Below are positions 3,855-61,853 of a stretch of 64,000 bases of DNA, piece by piece; position 1 is the first letter of the stretch; every line of letters starts with the position of its first letter. The translations under genes were made by a program, and so were the position numbers. The DNA is taken from contig CAYRIU010000007.1 of the NCBI GenBank assembly GCA_964424615.1, positions 20,052 through 84,051 of the forward strand, read 5' to 3'. Origin of the DNA: an uncultured Gammaproteobacteria bacterium (GTDB taxonomy: Bacteria; Patescibacteriota; Patescibacteriia; UBA1558; GWA2-36-10). The notes under the pieces were generated by a model. It worked only from the letters and a program-made list of their open reading frames with translations. It ran no database searches and was not told the origin of the DNA.

Positions 3855-3881
3855 TTAGCACTCTATGTCAAGGAGTGCTAA
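3855..3881. promoter_or_regulatory. CIRCE operator (TTAGCACTC-N9-GAGTGCTAA, perfect) overlapping a minus-strand sigma70 promoter
   Basis: Perfect 9-N9-9 inverted repeat at 3855-3881. On the minus strand TTGACA (plus 3866-3871) lies inside the CIRCE spacer, then an 18-nt spacer and TATAAT (plus 3842-3847). The -10 is only ~7 nt from the hrcA ATG, so the transcript is leaderless or has a very short leader. Confidence 0.9.
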
Positions 3882-3903
3882 AAATACGCATTTTCCTCTT
3901 ATT

Positions 3904-8851: not shown

Positions 8852-8892
8852 TTAGCACTCTATATTATAGAGTGCTAATATTTTTTTGTCAA
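8852..8892 (-). promoter_or_regulatory. Second perfect CIRCE (8852-8878) overlapping a consensus sigma70 promoter (TTGACA-17-TATAAT) for the efflux operon
   Basis: TTAGCACTC-tatattata-GAGTGCTAA at 8852-8878. On the minus strand TTGACA is plus 8887-8892 and TATAAT is plus 8864-8869, separated by a 17-nt spacer that is the left CIRCE arm. About 70 nt upstream of the HlyD start at 8787. Confidence 0.85.
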
Positions 8893-10029: not shown

Positions 10030-11787
10030 TTATTTATTAGCAATAGTCATATTGACCTGCAAATTGGCTTGTTGATTATTGACATCAATACTTTTGATTG
10101 TGTAATTAAATGATTTAATGTCCAAATTAGCAGCCTTTTGCCTGTCATTAACTACTGGTAACTGACTGGTCAAAATATTTTTGATATCAGTCTGATTGAT
10201 AGCCAAAACTTGAAAGGTAGCTGTAATATTGATAGCCTGGCCTACTGTAAAATTTTCAATAGTTGGCTGAATATCATCGACGGTTGTATTGACAATAGCC
10301 GGTATCAAATACAAAACGCCCTTGCTATATTCCTTGTTCAGACCACCGAGCAATTGCGTAGTCATGTCAGCTAAAATATTTTTCTTGACCTGCTCATAGC
10401 TAAGTTCTGGATAATCCCTCTGCTGACTCAAGGTAAAAGGCACAAGCTGGGCATAGACAAAATCTTTAGCGCCAACTTTATTTTCCACTCCCACTACTAC
10501 TGATTTGTCAGTAAAATCAAAACTAATTTTTGGATTAAGTAATGTTTTTATAGGACCACGCAAAAACCAAGCTGCCCCCGCTAAGCCAACCAAAATAATA
10601 GCCACAATAAAATAAACACTAGTAATCACTTTTTTCCAAGTAGCTTCTTCTACTTCTGCATCATTGACATCATCACTATTGCCCTCTGAGGCATTATTTT
10701 TTTCCTTGTGAGCTTTATCAGCTAATAAACCTAATTTGTTTCTATTGGCTTCATTAAAAAAATTGAGCTCGCTCTTGGTATGAGCTAGGCGAGCCAAGCC
10801 CAAAGCATTGATATACTTGGTAAATACAACTTGATCTTTATCTTTGTGTTCACTCAAAAAACTCTCACCAATAAAAGCTGGTACAGATAAATTGGCACTA
10901 AAATAATCCACCAATCCGCGCATCTGGGTCAGACCACCGATCAAAATCACCTGCTCTATTTTTAAATTAGACATCTGCTCCCAATAAACCACAAAACGCT
11001 TGATCTCATCGGTCAATGGCTGGAGTTGTCCCTGCAACATGAGCATCACTTCTCCGTCACCAGGTGCAGCAGTCAAGCCAACATCGCGCAATCTATTTTC
11101 GGCTTCAGCATAGCTAATATTAAATCTATTCTTCACAGCTACTAAAATCTCATTACCCCCAATGCCTATATTGATAGAAGATCGGATGCCACGTCCATCA
11201 TAAATACTAGCAATAGTCACTTTTGATCCTAAATCCAAAAGTAAGGTGGTAGTTTTTTTGAATTTATCATGCAGACCAGCAATAGCAGCTATAGACTCGG
11301 TAGTAATACCAGCTACTTCTATATCCAAATCTTTAAATAATTTGATATAAGAACGCACAATGTCCATCTCGGCTGCTATATAGGTAAACTCCCTATGACT
11401 ATTGTTGACCAAAAGCTCCTGAGAAGCAGTCAATAAATTATCAAAATCTTCTGGTATGGTCTCCTCTGCTTGATGCTGTATAGCTTCTGGTACTTCTTTG
11501 GATTTCAAAGCTTTTGGTATACTGATATTCCTAATAAAAGCCCTAGACTCTGGTATAGAAAAATATACCTTACTTGGATTTATGGGTCTGGGGTGACCAT
11601 TTTTAAACATAGCTGATAGCGCATCTTTGAGCTTGTCTGCCTTTACTAGACGACCACCCTCGATAATATCTGGTGAAATCCTAAATCTAGAATAGCTATC
11701 TACACTAAAACCAGTGCCATGCTTCTTGAGGACAATAGCCTCAATAGAGGCATCTGACATATCTAGACCAATAATATCCTTGGACAT
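10030..11787 (-). CDS. pilM: Type IV pilus assembly protein PilM fused to a PilN/PilO-like membrane segment
   Basis: Actin-like PilM N-terminus (IIGLDMSDASIEAIVLKK), a TM helix around residue 400 (VYFIVAIILVGLAGAAWFL), then a periplasmic domain. Start set at ATG 11787 (MSKDIIG); the ORF-track extension to 11850 would translate through the conserved leader element. Confidence 0.8.
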   Translation of the reverse strand: MSKDIIGLDMSDASIEAIVLKKHGTGFSVDSYSRFRISPDIIEGGRLVKADKLKDALSAMFKNGHPRPINPSKVYFSIPESRAFIRNISIPKALKSKEVPEAIQHQAEETIPEDFDNLLTASQELLVNNSHREFTYIAAEMDIVRSYIKLFKDLDIEVAGITTESIAAIAGLHDKFKKTTTLLLDLGSKVTIASIYDGRGIRSSINIGIGGNEILVAVKNRFNISYAEAENRLRDVGLTAAPGDGEVMLMLQGQLQPLTDEIKRFVVYWEQMSNLKIEQVILIGGLTQMRGLVDYFSANLSVPAFIGESFLSEHKDKDQVVFTKYINALGLARLAHTKSELNFFNEANRNKLGLLADKAHKEKNNASEGNSDDVNDAEVEEATWKKVITSVYFIVAIILVGLAGAAWFLRGPIKTLLNPKISFDFTDKSVVVGVENKVGAKDFVYAQLVPFTLSQQRDYPELSYEQVKKNILADMTTQLLGGLNKEYSKGVLYLIPAIVNTTVDDIQPTIENFTVGQAINITATFQVLAINQTDIKNILTSQLPVVNDRQKAANLDIKSFNYTIKSIDVNNQQANLQVNMTIANK

Positions 11788-11808
11788 TTTAAATACTTTA
11801 CTTCTTAA

Positions 11809-11949
11809 TTCACCCCGTTGAATAGTCCCGCTAGGCGGGACTACCGCCAAAAAAATATTTTTAATTATTTTATTTTTATCATTAAATAATTAACTCTTCT
11901 ATCACCAATAGTATTTAGGTGGCGGTATTCAACAGGGTAAATTATAACA
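11809..11949 (-). promoter_or_regulatory. Promoter plus structured 5' leader element, copy 1 (upstream of pilM)
   Basis: Minus strand: TGtTATAAT (plus 11941-11949), then ttaccctgttgaataccgcc, a 72-nt AT-rich spacer, ggcggtag, hairpin tcccgc-cta-gcggga, ctattcaacggggtgaa, about 21 nt, then the pilM ATG. Same architecture as 61654-61800. Confidence 0.6.
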
Positions 11950-11962
11950 TTTTTCAAAAAAT

Positions 11963-11992
11963 AAAAAAAGTTGGCTCAATAACCAACTTTTT
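11963..11992 (-). terminator. Rho-independent terminator after the Cys-rich pilin gene
   Basis: Hairpin agttgg-ctcaataa-ccaact flanked by an A7 run on the plus strand (T7 on the minus strand) and a T run, so it can act in both directions. Confidence 0.7.
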
Positions 11993-17891: not shown

Positions 17892-19106
17892 TTAGCCACC
17901 GCCTGATAATTCCATCAGTTTGAAGATTGGCTGGATGATACCAATAGCCACCACACCAACTACCAAACCAATGACAATCAATAAAGCCGGCTCCAAGATA
18001 CTGGAAAAATTCTTGGAAGCATTGTCAACATCTTCTTCATAAAAATCAGCTAGATAATCAAGTACATCGCTCAAATTACCAGAGTTTTCACCGACTCTGA
18101 TCATACGATACAACATAGGTGGAAAATATTGTCTATTAGCCATAGCATCAGATAGTGAATTACCTTTCAAAATATTATGATAAACTATGGTCAGCTGCTC
18201 TCTATAGACAGCGCTAGTCAAAGTATCTGATACTATTTTGAGAGCCTGATCAATAGTGATGCCACTATTCAACAAAGAGCCCATAGTACGACAATACAAA
18301 GCTAAATTCATTTCACGAATAATGTGACCTGCCAAAGGGATTTTCAGATAAAAATAATGTAGCCACAATCTAGTATTATAAAATCTCTCCATAATCTGTG
18401 CTGCTACTACCACTCCCACTACCACAGCAATAATCACCCACCAATAACTACTCAAAAAAGCAGAAGATGCTTGTAATAGCTTGGTCAGTGGTGGCATATT
18501 GTCACCCAAGGCAGCAAAAAAACCTTGTAATTTTGGCAACACCAAAGTAGATACCATGGTCATCAAGCCTAACACGGCAATCAAAACTATAATTGGATAA
18601 ATAGAAGCCGCTTTTATTTTACTACGTAGCTCATATGTTTTGTGTTGCTGGACAGCCAAAATTTCTAAATTTTTAGCTAGTGTACCAGATGATTCACCGA
18701 CAGCTACCATATTCACAAAAAGATTGTTAAAATCTTTGGGATACTTTTTCAAAGCACTGGCAAAAGAATTACCTTTGCGCACTTCATTGAGCAAGCCGAC
18801 CATACGATCATGCACCAATGGTGAAGCACCATCAGCCAAAACTTCCAAAGCAGCGTCAATAGACATGCCAGATTTTATCATCACTGAGAGATGTTTGGAC
18901 ATCATGACTCTGTCCACCAAGCGCATAGAGCCGATAATAATCTGCTTTTTGGTTATATTTTTTTTGTCTTTGCTATATTGTTCTAGAGAAACCAAAGTCC
19001 CCTCCTGCAAAGCTAAACGATTGCGAGCTTCTTGGATATTAGCCGCATCCATTTTGCCTTTGACGATCTTACCTTGATTGTCAGTGAGTTTATAATTAAA
19101 CTGCAT
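17892..19106 (-). CDS. pilC: Type IV pilus inner-membrane platform protein PilC (GspF family)
   Basis: 404 aa with two T2SS_F domains and three TM segments. Confidence 0.9.
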   Translation of the reverse strand: MQFNYKLTDNQGKIVKGKMDAANIQEARNRLALQEGTLVSLEQYSKDKKNITKKQIIIGSMRLVDRVMMSKHLSVMIKSGMSIDAALEVLADGASPLVHDRMVGLLNEVRKGNSFASALKKYPKDFNNLFVNMVAVGESSGTLAKNLEILAVQQHKTYELRSKIKAASIYPIIVLIAVLGLMTMVSTLVLPKLQGFFAALGDNMPPLTKLLQASSAFLSSYWWVIIAVVVGVVVAAQIMERFYNTRLWLHYFYLKIPLAGHIIREMNLALYCRTMGSLLNSGITIDQALKIVSDTLTSAVYREQLTIVYHNILKGNSLSDAMANRQYFPPMLYRMIRVGENSGNLSDVLDYLADFYEEDVDNASKNFSSILEPALLIVIGLVVGVVAIGIIQPIFKLMELSGGG

Positions 19107-19108
19107 AT

Positions 19109-20794
19109 TTATTGTTTAGTCACTCTAAATATTTCCTCAATGGTTGTCTTGCCAGAAAATGCTTTCATAAATCCGTCCTCTAGCATAGTCACCATACCAT
19201 TGGCTATGGCTAGTTTGGTTATCTGATCAGAATCTGCGCGAGCCACAATCAGCTCTCGAATATTTTCTTCTATTTTCAAAACTTCAAAAATACCCAAACG
19301 GCCAGTATAGCCAGTGTGATTGCAAGCATCACAACCCTTACCTCGATAAAGACGCACTTCTTTGACTTGGCTAGTATTGATAAATTTATCAATATTGATT
19401 TCTTTTTTTATATCTGCTATTTCTTGTTCAGACAAAATATAGCTATAAATACATTTCATACATATCTTCCTGACCAATCTTTGACCAATAATCACATTGA
19501 CAGTAGAAGCTACCAAAAATGGCTGTATCTCCATATCAAGTAGACGTGGCAATGAGGTAGCAGCATCATTGGTATGCAAGGTAGACAAGACCAAATGTCC
19601 AGTCATAGCTGAATTCACAGCGATACCAGCAGTTTCATTGTCACGAATTTCTCCCACCATTATAATATCTGGATCTTGACGCAATAACGAACGTAAACCA
19701 GCAGCAAAAGTCAAATTAGTAGCTGGATTGACCTGCACTTGATTGACGCCATCCAAGCTATACTCTACTGGATCTTCGATGGTACAAATATTGATATCAC
19801 GTTTATTGAGAATCTTGACCAAGGCATACAAAGTGGTGGTTTTACCAGAACCAGTAGGTCCAGTGGACAGGATCATACCGTATGGCTTATTGATAGCTTC
19901 ATTGACTACTGCCAAATCTTTTTCATTCATACCTAGCTCTTCTAGGGTAAAAAATTTACCCTGAGAAGACAAAAGTCTCATAACTACTTTTTCACCATGA
20001 ACAATTGGCAGAATAGAGACTCTGATATCTAGCTTGATATTTTCTACCTCTGTCACAATCTTACCATCTTGAGCTGCCCTAGTTTCATCAGTACGTAGTT
20101 TGGCTAAGATTTTTATCCTAGTGACTATCATGTCCAAAATATTTTTTGGTAAATTCATGATGTCATATAGTAGACCATCAATACGAAATCTAATAACAAT
20201 TTCTTTTTCTGTTGGTTCGATGTGAATATCAGAAGCATGATTCATAAAACCATAGTTGATAATATCATCTACCAATCGGATGACAGATACATCTTCCCTA
20301 GAAGCACCCTGGGCTTTGATAGCGTTTTTTTGGATGTTGCTGACATACTCAGTCTGAATACTCTTTTTGTATAGACGCAAAGCATTTTCTAGTTCGCGAT
20401 CTGTGGCGTAGTATGTCAAAACTTTGTCGCCCAATTTTTTTTCCAAAGCCTTGACCATCGGATAATCAAATGGATCAGCCATGGCTACATGAGTGCCTTC
20501 GGTATCTCTTTTGAAAATAAGCATCTTTTGCTTACGAGCGACTATCTCTGGCAACTGAGTCAAAATCTCTGGCTTGATATTTTCCTTAGCCAGATTGACA
20601 TATTTTACATGTAAATTGTTGGCTATCAACTGTCCTATTTCTTGTGCCTTGATGAGTTCCTGCTCAATCAAAAAACCAACAAAATCTATTTTTTTCTCTC
20701 GAGAAGTTTTGAGAGCTGTATCCAAAACATCAGGCTTGATCAAGCCGTATTTGCTTATGATTTGATAAACCTTCTCATCGGTCACTATGGACAT
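19109..20794 (-). CDS. pilB: Type IV pilus assembly ATPase PilB (GspE family)
   Basis: 561 aa. GspE N-terminal domain, Walker A GPTGSGKTT, Asp/His boxes, and a tetracysteine Zn motif (CMKC...CDAC). Confidence 0.92.
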   Translation of the reverse strand: MSIVTDEKVYQIISKYGLIKPDVLDTALKTSREKKIDFVGFLIEQELIKAQEIGQLIANNLHVKYVNLAKENIKPEILTQLPEIVARKQKMLIFKRDTEGTHVAMADPFDYPMVKALEKKLGDKVLTYYATDRELENALRLYKKSIQTEYVSNIQKNAIKAQGASREDVSVIRLVDDIINYGFMNHASDIHIEPTEKEIVIRFRIDGLLYDIMNLPKNILDMIVTRIKILAKLRTDETRAAQDGKIVTEVENIKLDIRVSILPIVHGEKVVMRLLSSQGKFFTLEELGMNEKDLAVVNEAINKPYGMILSTGPTGSGKTTTLYALVKILNKRDINICTIEDPVEYSLDGVNQVQVNPATNLTFAAGLRSLLRQDPDIIMVGEIRDNETAGIAVNSAMTGHLVLSTLHTNDAATSLPRLLDMEIQPFLVASTVNVIIGQRLVRKICMKCIYSYILSEQEIADIKKEINIDKFINTSQVKEVRLYRGKGCDACNHTGYTGRLGIFEVLKIEENIRELIVARADSDQITKLAIANGMVTMLEDGFMKAFSGKTTIEEIFRVTKQ

Positions 20795-60984: not shown

Positions 60985-61627
60985 GTTTATCTAGATAATC
61001 AATAATTAATTTAGCCACATCAGCAATACTACCCTTACCGTCAATAACAACTAATTTATTTTGCTGCTCATAATATTCCAAAAGCTTGGCGGTTTCTTCT
61101 CTGTAATACTTCAATCTCTTGCGCAACAAATCTTCACGATCATCTTCACGAAAATGCAAGGGTTCATGGCAAATTTCACAAGTAGAATCAAGACTAGAAG
61201 GACGATGTTCTATGTGAAAAACATGGCCATTGCTACAAATACGACGACCAACTATACGACTCACTGCTATCTCATCAGTGATATCAATATTGATAACCAA
61301 ATCAATCAAATAATGCTGATCTAGATTGGAAGCTTGATAAATAGTACGAGGAAAACCATCTATTAAGAAACCCTTTTTATATTTTTCTGTTTTTAGCTCC
61401 TCTAGCATCAAAGATATCATCAAACTATCAGGTATCATCTCACCATTGTTCACAAACTGCCCTATACGGAGTCCTAACTCTGTCTTTTGTCTGATAGCTG
61501 ACCTCAATAAATCTCCGGCAGCCAAAATATTGATATCTAAATAATCGGTAATCACCTGACTCTGAGTACTTTTTCCTGAACCCTGTGGTCCCATCAATAT
61601 TACTTTATTTATTTTATAATCTGCCAT
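60974..61627 (-). CDS. adk: Adenylate kinase (long form with Zn lid)
   Basis: 217 aa. P-loop GPQGSGKSTQ; lid Cys/His cluster C-x2-H...C-x2-H. Confidence 0.92.
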   Translation of the reverse strand: MADYKINKVILMGPQGSGKSTQSQVITDYLDINILAAGDLLRSAIRQKTELGLRIGQFVNNGEMIPDSLMISLMLEELKTEKYKKGFLIDGFPRTIYQASNLDQHYLIDLVINIDITDEIAVSRIVGRRICSNGHVFHIEHRPSSLDSTCEICHEPLHFREDDREDLLRKRLKYYREETAKLLEYYEQQNKLVVIDGKGSIADVAKLIIDYLDKHAR

Positions 61628-61653
61628 TTTGTTATTTATTTATATAATTATAA

Positions 61654-61800
61654 TTCACCCCGTGAAATAGTTTTCGTGTTAAACACGAAAACTACCGCTA
61701 ATTAATACTATTAAAAAATACTTTTAGTTTATATTTATATGAACTTTTAAATTTTAATCATACTATGCTGTAGCGGTATTTCACTGGGTAAATTATAGCA
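61654..61800 (-). promoter_or_regulatory. Promoter plus structured 5' leader element, copy 2 (upstream of adk)
   Basis: Minus strand: TTGAGT-17-TGcTATAAT (plus 61792-61800), then ttacccagtgaaataccgcta, a 72-nt AT-rich spacer, tagcggtag, hairpin ttttcgtgtt-taa-acacgaaaa, ctatttcacggggtgaa, 24 nt, then the adk ATG. Confidence 0.6.
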
Positions 61801-61821
61801 AAAGTATGCACTTTACTCAAT

Positions 61822-61853
61822 CAAAAAACCCGATCCGCCAGCTGGCGGATCGG
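61822..61853 (-). terminator. Rho-independent terminator downstream of secY
   Basis: Perfect 10-bp stem ccgatccgcc-agct-ggcggatcgg, followed on the minus strand by GTTTTTTG. Confidence 0.8.

Follow-up and report, generated by a model that had tools for sequence, protein, structure and literature searches.

The stretch of DNA analysed here (the window), 64,000 nucleotides of contig CAYRIU010000007.1 from an uncultured bacterium of the Patescibacteria (candidate phyla radiation), contains two intergenic segments, at 11809-11949 upstream of pilM and at 61654-61800 upstream of adk, that share one architecture on the minus strand. Our analysis suggests that each of them is probably a copy of an interspersed palindromic repeat of the Patescibacteria, which resembles the Correia and ERIC elements of other bacteria and would be transcribed as a structured 5' leader. 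As a Correia/ERIC-like repeat the element is ordinary in kind, yet it is undescribed, widespread in an under-studied phylum and unusually precisely placed. The members of this phylum have tiny, streamlined genomes, the non-coding elements of which are hardly described in the literature that we searched. For this group it is new to find a palindromic repeat with conservation among metagenomes from groundwater, sludge and sediment and with a location at exact nucleotides next to -10 boxes or start codons, and it bears on the organisation of gene expression and on the mobile DNA tolerated in Patescibacteria.

Architecture and extent of the repeat family

A reading of the minus strand finds the arms, the -10 box and the local hairpin of both segments where the original prediction had placed them, together with the compensatory changes that it had described, and the assignment of the downstream genes by Pfam as PilM (PF11104) and Adk-Map-RuvX (ADK, Peptidase_M24, RuvX) agrees with its annotation. 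In both copies, the -10 box is followed by TT and the 5' arm, and the trinucleotide TAG is located between a big domain and the local hairpin. The pattern AATACCGC-N60-90-GCGGTAG matches the window exactly twice, with a span of 89 nt both times, compared to zero matches expected from 100 shuffles. The copies fold into a three-way junction devoid of any unpaired junction base, with energies of -50.7 kcal/mol for the copy at pilM (copy 1) and -44.4 kcal/mol for the copy at adk (copy 2), and with folding z-scores of -7.5 and -7.8, respectively, neither of which was equalled in 200 shuffles. This junction is composed of a long-range helix between the arms (P1), a helix of 7 bp closing the big domain (P2) and the small local hairpin (P3), whose stem extends over 8-11 bp. 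Whereas the presence of the long-range helix had been correctly anticipated, its length is 12-16 bp instead of the proposed 8 bp. Similarly, the A/T-rich stretch leading from GGGGTGAA to the ATG, for which a length of 21-24 nt had been given, measures 21 nt in copy 1 but 26 nt in copy 2.

A covariance model built from the lineage-specific subfamily to which the window copies belong (R1) assigns 108 bits to copy 1 and 136.6 bits to copy 2, both on the minus strand, and it detects nothing else in the window. A scan of such genomes with a pattern that began at ACCC, and from which the promoter was left out, uncovered six further true subfamily copies in low-GC metagenome-assembled genomes (MAGs) of Patescibacteria type. 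These are located at corA (loci L011 and L022), a GTPase gene (L013), a methyltransferase gene (L014), pilM (L018) and adk (L020), they are all sense to the downstream gene and they end 14-25 nt before its ATG. The motif TGnTATAAT is found 2 nt before the start of the element in all eight subfamily copies, and a perfect TATAAT preceded by TG that abuts the end of the big domain is confined to this subfamily (8/8 copies), whose big domain is closed by CCGC/GCGG. In an alignment of nine subfamily sequences the same three-way junction is recovered with 98.8% of the positions paired, and the alignment contains nine double compensatory pairs and no one-sided (wobble) change, with a score that was reached by none of 500 shuffles. 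In the small hairpin P3, six of the ten pairs show double compensatory changes. A weak model match at 2726-2838 of L024 consists of an inverted repeat of 17 bp whose arms (TTCACCCAGTTAGAAAAA / TTTTTCTAACTGGGT) resemble those of the family and whose 3' arm resides inside the sequence coding for a prepilin leader peptide (GVFLTG|FTLIE), and it could either be a family member or a chance palindrome.

The subfamily is part of a much larger assembly of sequences. A pattern defining only the arms and containing free positions (ACCCnGTnnAATA-N95-125-TATTnnACnGGGT) found at least 120 loci on metagenome contigs, and all counts and alignments of this main family are drawn from the matches listed for this search. 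Judged by the names of the records, several of the loci originate from activated sludge and others from groundwater-like habitats (Hain-H41/H51), the rest carrying only JGI identifiers. The same pattern did not match any viral contig, and a stricter one demanding the junction of P2 and P3 had no match in either metagenome or viral contigs. In 112 of the 122 matches listed, the free positions of the arms are complementary, compared to 1 in 16 expected by chance, with ACCCTGTTAAATA / TATTTAACAGGGT constituting the dominant arm pair and with GTGAAATA and GTTGAATA found as further variants. Constrained folding revealed a common plan consisting of P1, a small hairpin of typically 17-35 nt and a big domain of typically 80-92 nt, which in the main family closes with AGATTTG/CAAATCT and whose length is kept at about 80-92 nt also in the absence of sequence conservation. 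In an alignment of 45 main-family sequences 96.5% of the positions are paired, twelve pairs show double changes and the observed score was again reached by none of 500 shuffles. The compensatory changes initially noticed between two copies are thus real, and they extend to many more.

Membership of the window copies in this family is reflected in their detection, with E-values of about 6e-9, by a second model (R2) that was built from main-family sequences only and contained no window copy. R2 scores copy 1 with 61.3 bits on the plus compared to 46.3 bits on the minus strand, and copy 2 with 61.4 compared to 37.5 bits, and it prefers the strand opposite to the gene in every subfamily copy. Since the plus strand is favoured, the window copies are family members in the minority orientation, antisense to pilM and adk. 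Across the family the flanks lengthen the inverted repeat to ATT[C/T]ACCC ... GGGT[A/G]AAT, resulting in terminal inverted repeats of 13-17 bp (ATT[C/T]ACCCnGTnnAATA ... TATTnnACnGGGT[A/G]AAT) that are conserved in all copies of an otherwise non-coding element of about 130-150 bp with a G+C fraction of 0.14-0.37.

The density of the repeat is low, with two copies in the 64-kb window and, beyond one seed copy per locus, about six extra copies in 482 kb of metagenome loci. Arrays and nested copies are frequent, as observed in the metagenome loci L029, L057, L066, L071 and L125 and in L013. Three contigs of one MAG (CALMZN01) harbour three full copies, an array of three units and a remnant. The array (L013 1061-1302, detected by R1) is a tandem arrangement located between two genes that are both on the opposite strand, away from any start codon, and two of its units are identical, compact three-way junctions of 65 nt separated by TCAA, with a G+C-rich hairpin in the place of the AT-rich big domain. 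The remnant (L014 6239-6355, detected by R1) comprises a 3' half. At different loci of one genome, the big domains share identities of 0.89 (L013 and L014) and 0.77-0.78 (L011 with either L013 or L014), compared to 0.65 between the corA-site copies of two genomes and 0.81 between the adk-site copies of the window and L020. The greater likeness within a genome indicates recent intragenomic spread or gene conversion.

Several features of individual family members deserve mention. The big domain of the main family contains conserved non-palindromic motifs, a purine block resembling GGGTGA or AGGTGA and, directly preceding a terminal mini-hairpin, AAATAAG(T)TG (for example in L095 1394-1554, L129 1561-1706 and L043 1551-1702); the AAATAAG of the latter complements the CTTATTT found where the closing helix joins P1, and an alternative local pairing would thus be possible. 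In L025, a relative whose PilM is 76% identical, main-type copies lacking a G+C closing helix precede hsp20 and dnaK (18931-19064 and 19786-19921), each holding a proximal repeat that resembles the 3' arm and that could pair locally with the 5' arm. Metagenome contigs with family members also contain a match to a group I intron (76.6 bits, L046 4636-4879) and a tmRNA gene (L042 10140-10489).

Placement at promoters and start codons

Comparison with relatives shows the promoters of pilM and adk to predate the element, whose copies in the window were inserted directly behind the -10 hexamers of these existing promoters. Homologues of Adk with 78-91% identity were used to fetch orthologous spacers between secY and adk. 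This spacer measures 242 bp in the window compared to 91-115 bp in L001, L002 and L005, where terminator and TTGAGT-17-TGCTATAAT promoter are the same as in the window and where the interval from TATAAT to ATG, which does not contain the element, amounts to only 20-37 nt. Upstream of pilM, the spacer measures 240 bp in the window compared to 109-124 bp in L023 and L024 (PilM 81-82% identical), where the sequence ...TTTTTTTATTTTCTTAAAAATGTTATAAT continues into a plain leader of 46-48 nt, again without the element. Since the relatives carry the promoter and lack the element, the latter constitutes an insertion into an older promoter-to-ATG interval, within a base or two of TATAAT-TT. The extended -10 box, which had originally been regarded as part of the element, thus belongs to the site, as identical promoters are found without an element at adk (L001, L002, L005) and at pilM (L023, L024). 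L023 and L020 originate from one MAG, where adk is preceded by the element and pilM is not. Two further relatives, L009 and L010 (Adk 91% and 88% identical), contain a second element that follows TATAAT and separates it from what is left of the older, now shortened adk copy. The same junction was thus hit twice, and the displaced copy has decayed.

In the window, all features of both sites are located on the minus strand, and the helices described below were defined by folding and alignment. Including its extended inverted-repeat ends (ATTTACCC...GGGGTGAAT), copy 1 occupies 11808..11942, between the -10 box of pilM and its ATG at 11787. The extended -10 box (TGTTATAAT, 11949-11941) is resident at the locus, outside the element, and is the same in the relatives L023 and L024. 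P1 is formed by the 5' arm ACCCTGTTGAATA (11938-11926), which pairs with 11812-11823, and the 3' arm ATTCAACGGGGT (11823-11812). The inner helix CCGCC:GGCGG (11925-11921 : 11848-11844), recognised from sequence and fold, is contained in the closing helix ACCGCC(A)/(T)GGCGGT of the big domain (11843..11926), which surrounds an AT-rich, unconserved interior of about 70 nt, and the small hairpin P3, AGTCCCGC-CTA-GCGGGACT, extends over 11842-11824. The gene upstream of pilM is predicted to end in an intrinsic terminator at 11965..11992. Copy 2, again with extended inverted-repeat ends, is found at 61653..61793, between the -10 box of adk and the adk ATG at 61627, where the Adk-Map-RuvX operon begins. 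Its extended -10 box (TGCTATAAT, 61800-61792) is part of the resident adk promoter (TTGAGT-17-TGCTATAAT, 61792..61820). The arms of P1 are ACCCAGTGAAATA (61789-61777) and ATTTCACGGGGT (61668-61657), the inner helix CCGCTA:TAGCGG (61776-61771 : 61700-61695) is again evident from sequence and fold, the big domain (61694..61777) is closed by ACCGCTA/TAGCGGT around an AT-rich interior, and P3, AGTTTTCGTGTT-TAA-ACACGAAAACT, is located at 61693-61669. An intrinsic terminator of secY is predicted upstream of the adk promoter, at 61830..61853. On the plus strand, a promoter-like site identified by its match to the consensus only (CTGCCA-16-TATAAT, 61621-61648) reads into the adk copy in the canonical orientation of the family, and the predicted transcript would be antisense to the 5' end of adk.

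The position of the element relative to genes was analysed for 96 two-branch copies, taken from the matches listed and the subfamily, which were all oriented from the small hairpin towards the big domain. A gene start is found only beyond the end of the big domain in 49 of the 96, 27 of which exhibit the exact arrangement GGGT-AA-ATG, where the ATG follows 2 nt after the end, and only beyond the end of the small hairpin in 19, including all eight copies of the subfamily, whereas six copies show gene starts on both sides and 22 on neither. Concomitantly, a G follows the terminal AAAT on the big-domain side in 37 of 96 copies compared to 5 of 95 for the equivalent base at the other end. In the majority orientation (48 distinct copies, two of which are too near to a contig end), the upstream gene is co-directional in 30 of 46 cases. 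In half of these (15/30) its stop codon is located 3-16 nt from the element, which therefore fills the whole intercistronic spacer, and in L121, from another lineage, the spacer between secY and adk is likewise wholly filled. The proteins encoded downstream are diverse, with 96 Pfam families among 66 proteins, including type IV secretion system (T4SS) pilins, aminoacyl-tRNA synthetases, PGK, Lon, RuvC, SSB, RNase III, NDK and transporters. In place of the proposed two-copy leader common to pilM and adk, we thus find a large family of interspersed repeats upstream of unrelated genes. The host genome contains, as judged from the window, essentially no Shine-Dalgarno motifs, and several genes of the window have a TATAAT-like hexamer only 14-25 nt before their ATG, implying very short leaders. 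Random insertion with subsequent tolerance explains neither the use of one TATAAT junction at six independent subfamily loci nor the frequent location of the end of other family members 2 nt before the ATG on one particular side: either insertion is directed to such signals or the host selects for the placement.

Maintenance of the palindrome and its possible role in expression

If the helices were selected in RNA, G·U pairs would be tolerated on the functional strand whereas A·C pairs would not. We have counted pairs in the small hairpin and the closing helix of the big domain, both of which are outside the search pattern, leaving aside the arms of P1, which are largely fixed by the pattern and thus uninformative. 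Watson-Crick pairs number 1660, whereas G·U was found 13 times, A·C 21 times and mismatches of other kinds 59 times, without asymmetry in either orientation class, and the minimum free energies of the two strands do not differ significantly, irrespective of whether they are sorted by the orientation of the element or of the gene (p = 0.08-0.4). The helices are strictly Watson-Crick and without strand bias. Their covariation is thus that of a DNA palindrome, and we infer that the palindrome is maintained at the level of DNA. Covariation does therefore not serve as an argument for RNA over DNA, since G·U does not exceed A·C in frequency and there is no preference for either strand. Elements of this kind can be mistaken for a structured RNA whose conservation is backed by covariation, and a combined test of wobble tolerance and strand symmetry is able to tell DNA palindromes from RNA motifs.

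Either strand of the element can fold into the three-way junction, with terminal inverted repeats, one small hairpin and a domain that extends over about 85 nt and is closed by a separate helix. The palindrome might be kept because a copying or mobilising machinery requires hairpin or cruciform DNA, or by templated correction from one arm to the other. Where the flanking promoters fire, the operons of pilM and adk would gain a leader of about 140 nt, with a very stable fold located at the mRNA's 5' end or close to it, followed by 21-26 nt of unstructured, A/U-rich RNA preceding the AUG. Co-transcription would follow from the position of the copies, either behind a -10 box or filling the spacer between consecutive genes. 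In Neisseria, the mtrCDE promoter is immediately followed by a Correia copy whose inverted repeats are sites of RNase III cleavage. ERIC elements, in turn, change the stability of transcripts carrying them (PMC10969869). By analogy, the structure of the leader could affect the processing or stability of the mRNA, as a substrate of an RNase III-type enzyme or as a protective stem at the 5' end. Such an effect appears to us the most likely one, since coaxial stacking of P1 and P2 would provide a helix of about 22 bp, which is the usual minimal length of an RNase III substrate. In contrast, it is unlikely that the element senses a ligand. The original interpretation as an RNA leader is supported only in part, and the scenario in which the two copies belong to a transposon-like repeat family, which had been named as incompatible with it, largely applies, although with structure-preserving substitutions across many copies.

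Several observations weigh against the assignment as a transcribed, Correia/ERIC-like repeat. The placement, with 8/8 subfamily copies at TGnTATAAT and 27 of 96 copies at an ATG, is by far too precise to result from insertion at random with tolerance as the sole filter. The usual spacing between a -10 box and the start of transcription would place the predicted start at about the seventh nucleotide after TATAAT, and the ACCC of the 5' arm may thus fall outside the RNA, leaving a helix of 8-9 bp in addition to P2. When searching for target-site duplications, we found that none of TA, AT, AAT, AAAT or TATAAT holds across copies and that the variants of the flanks do not co-vary as direct repeats; the flanking AAAT / ATT[C/T] instead behaves as part of the inverted repeat, and a duplication of TA fits only some copies. 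No transposase-bearing parent with the same ends was detected among pairs of arms 300-3000 bp apart in about 1 Mb of loci. The apparent copy number is low, with the two copies in 64 kb and about six extra in 482 kb already mentioned, and the mobility of the element is therefore putative. Finally, the sequence of the arms is conserved across many environments and could be recognised by a host factor.

The alternative that best withstands the evidence, although we consider it rather unlikely, is that of a dedicated cis-regulatory RNA, where the three-way junction would act as a protein- or ligand-binding leader or as a processing signal that is selected at the RNA level and has spread to many operons. 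It might serve as a 5' stabiliser, as a site of RNase cleavage generating mRNAs with short leaders or as a translational gate in genomes lacking Shine-Dalgarno motifs. Such a function would account for the exact placement (at TGnTATAAT throughout the subfamily and as GGGT-AA-ATG in 27/49 main-family copies with a gene start beyond the big domain only), for the orientation bias of 49 to 19, for the decay of the older copy once displaced from its promoter in L009 and L010 and for the conservation of arms and junction across many habitats. It is also in line with the conserved non-palindromic motifs of the main family (AAATAAGTTG and GGGTGA-like sequences), with a host that has very short leaders and no Shine-Dalgarno motifs, and with the 15/30 tandem-gene cases where the filled spacer requires co-transcription. 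However, the helices show neither the tolerance to wobble pairs nor the strand asymmetry expected for RNA, both orientations are found with the window copies opposing the majority, the junction does not contain unpaired conserved nucleotides, and the window copies hold neither a terminator nor a platform sequestering the start site. Moreover, the downstream genes have no function in common, close relatives manage without the element at the same promoters and no Rfam family matches.

A further reading appears quite unlikely to us. The family may constitute a new kind of structure-dependent genetic element that does not duplicate its target and is directed to signals for the start of expression, where one of its ends would join either the final bases of a -10 hexamer or the AT of a start codon, for example by insertion into DNA that is transiently single-stranded at promoters and gene starts, or it may have been recruited by the host as a 5'-end module punctuating operons, for example as a processing signal for short-leader mRNAs in Patescibacteria without Shine-Dalgarno sites.

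We assign a still smaller probability to a site acting at the DNA level, either as paired repeats bound by a protein such as a regulator, a nucleoid protein, gyrase or a recombinase, or as a supercoil-driven cruciform at promoters and gene starts, which would modulate the initiation of transcription or serve recombination. The strand-symmetric, strictly Watson-Crick palindrome, the ends fused to a -10 hexamer or ATG, the conservation of 13-17-bp arms around a variable interior and the constant length of the big domain (about 80-92 nt) despite sequence change all speak for such a site. Conversely, at least three variants of the arms exist with corresponding changes on both sides (GTTGAATA, GTGAAATA, GTTAAATA), which a single binding protein does not explain, the internal hairpins co-vary, although this would not be needed in a duplex binding site, many copies separate consecutive genes of an operon, a location that would not be expected to hold a promoter, and no candidate protein was identified. 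A chance similarity of two AT-rich intergenic regions, suggested by nothing more than the low complexity of such spacers, has virtually no probability and is already refuted by two matches of the pattern against none in shuffles, folding z-scores of about -7.5 and at least 120 further copies.

Relation to known systems and other features of the window

Among described repeats, the element most closely parallels the Correia repeat (NEMIS) of Neisseria, which is equally non-coding, about 100-160 bp long, bounded by terminal inverted repeats and mostly located just upstream of genes, with filled and empty sites between strains and with co-transcription into RNA that forms a long hairpin. Its copy at mtrCDE corresponds to the situation in the window. 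In contrast to Correia repeats, which generate a duplication of their TA target and possess promoters of their own as well as an IHF site, we found no duplication and no internal promoter of the sigma-70 type, and neither a consistent promoter of this type nor an intrinsic terminator was detected inside three main-family copies, as would be expected for a mobile promoter or terminator. The element further differs by its two internal co-varying hairpins within a three-way junction and by ends that are located at fixed nucleotides from a -10 box or ATG. The two are not known to resemble each other in sequence.

The ERIC elements (or IRU) of Enterobacteriaceae and Vibrionaceae, with which we have compared the element by description only, are similar in size, in their intergenic transcription, in their occurrence in both orientations and in their low to moderate, variable copy number. 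To our knowledge, no transposase has been assigned to them. They differ in being found in another phylum, in forming a single long hairpin instead of a three-way junction and in lacking the exact placement at start codons or -10 boxes. With a length of about 127 bp, ERIC sequences form imperfect palindromes within intergenic DNA that is transcribed, and they are present in either orientation and in numbers that vary between relatives, with about 30 copies in E. coli K-12 (PMC10969869). As intergenic palindrome of 100-160 bp with variable presence among relatives, the repeat described here belongs to the Correia/ERIC-type class, which denotes a function and not a family of sequences. It shares the terminal inverted repeats, the small size, the lack of coding sequence, the presence of several copies per genome and the filled and empty sites with miniature inverted-repeat transposable elements, or MITEs, which are non-autonomous derivatives of DDE transposons, but not their target-site duplication.

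The REP, BIME and REPIN sequences, which are mobilised by RAYT transposases, are likewise extragenic palindromes, contain co-varying stems recognised as a hairpin in single-stranded DNA, are found between genes of operons and occur in arrays, and the window subfamily carries a GTAG before its small hairpin (GCGGTAG|T...) as found in REPs, which is absent from the main family. REPs are 20-40 nt long, G+C-rich, present in hundreds of copies and have a genome-specific sequence tied to a RAYT gene. In contrast, our element is about 140 bp long, AT-rich and low in copy number, with arms common to many genomes, and its unit length, its G+C fraction of 0.14-0.37, its copy number and the restriction of GTAG to the window subfamily rule out its classification as REP or REPIN. 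Similarly, an origin as IS200/IS605-derived palindrome-associated element (PATE), a class with subterminal hairpins but no terminal inverted repeats that inserts 3' of a fixed target of 4-5 nt, was rejected, as long terminal inverted repeats are present and as the empty sites, where TATAAT is followed by ATCG, TTGA, TTTA or TTAG, do not contain a common TTAC-like target. IS608-like elements with a TTAC target and hammerhead-type cores were equally rejected from the sequence. With respect to integron attC sites, the motifs GTTGAAT/ATTCAAC or GTTAAAT/ATTTAAC appear on both strands in an order opposite to RYYYAAC ... GTTRRRY, and GTGAAAT does not fit.

With riboswitches and other leaders in Rfam the element shares the location between promoter and start codon, the multi-helix junction and the covariation, but it differs in the lack of a match in Rfam 15, of unpaired conserved nucleotides in the junction and of an expression platform, in the unrelated genes that it precedes, in its occurrence in both orientations and in its intolerance to G·U pairs. 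The original statement that no described leader or riboswitch could be recognised is borne out by Rfam 15, which contains no matching model: there was no hit at the gathering score in the whole window and none usable at the E-value threshold in either copy, with sub-threshold hits that are unrelated and not common to both. The same search on 14 main-family loci picked up only a tmRNA, a tRNA and a group I intron, each at another place of its locus than the repeat, and the window contains neither a tRNA nor a tmRNA. The sequence GGGGTGA does not qualify as Shine-Dalgarno site, as it is located 21-26 nt from the ATG in a genome essentially without such motifs, and a leader peptide in the AT-rich domain (MIKI or MIKIK in the window copies) was dismissed since it varies in position and is missing in the other copies. 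The comparison of identities between copies gave no clear signal for a flip-flop inversion of the big domain. In the literature searched, we found neither a relevant description of an RNA motif or repeat in Patescibacteria nor any mention of the sequence of the arms, and the phylum does not appear in a review of MITEs of prokaryotes published in 2024 (PMC10969869).

Unrelated to the repeat, the minus strand of the window contains two perfect CIRCE operators (TTAGCACTC-N9-GAGTGCTAA, at about 8852-8878 and 3862-3888). One of them precedes hrcA-grpE-hsp20-dnaK, where the GTG start of hrcA proposed by the open reading frame finder falls inside the operator. The other overlaps the -10 box of a TTGACA-17-TATAAT promoter upstream of genes for an HlyD-type adaptor, an ABC ATPase and two FtsX/MacB-like permeases (8787 to 3904), and this arrangement of sites suggests that an efflux-type transporter operon may be under the control of HrcA.

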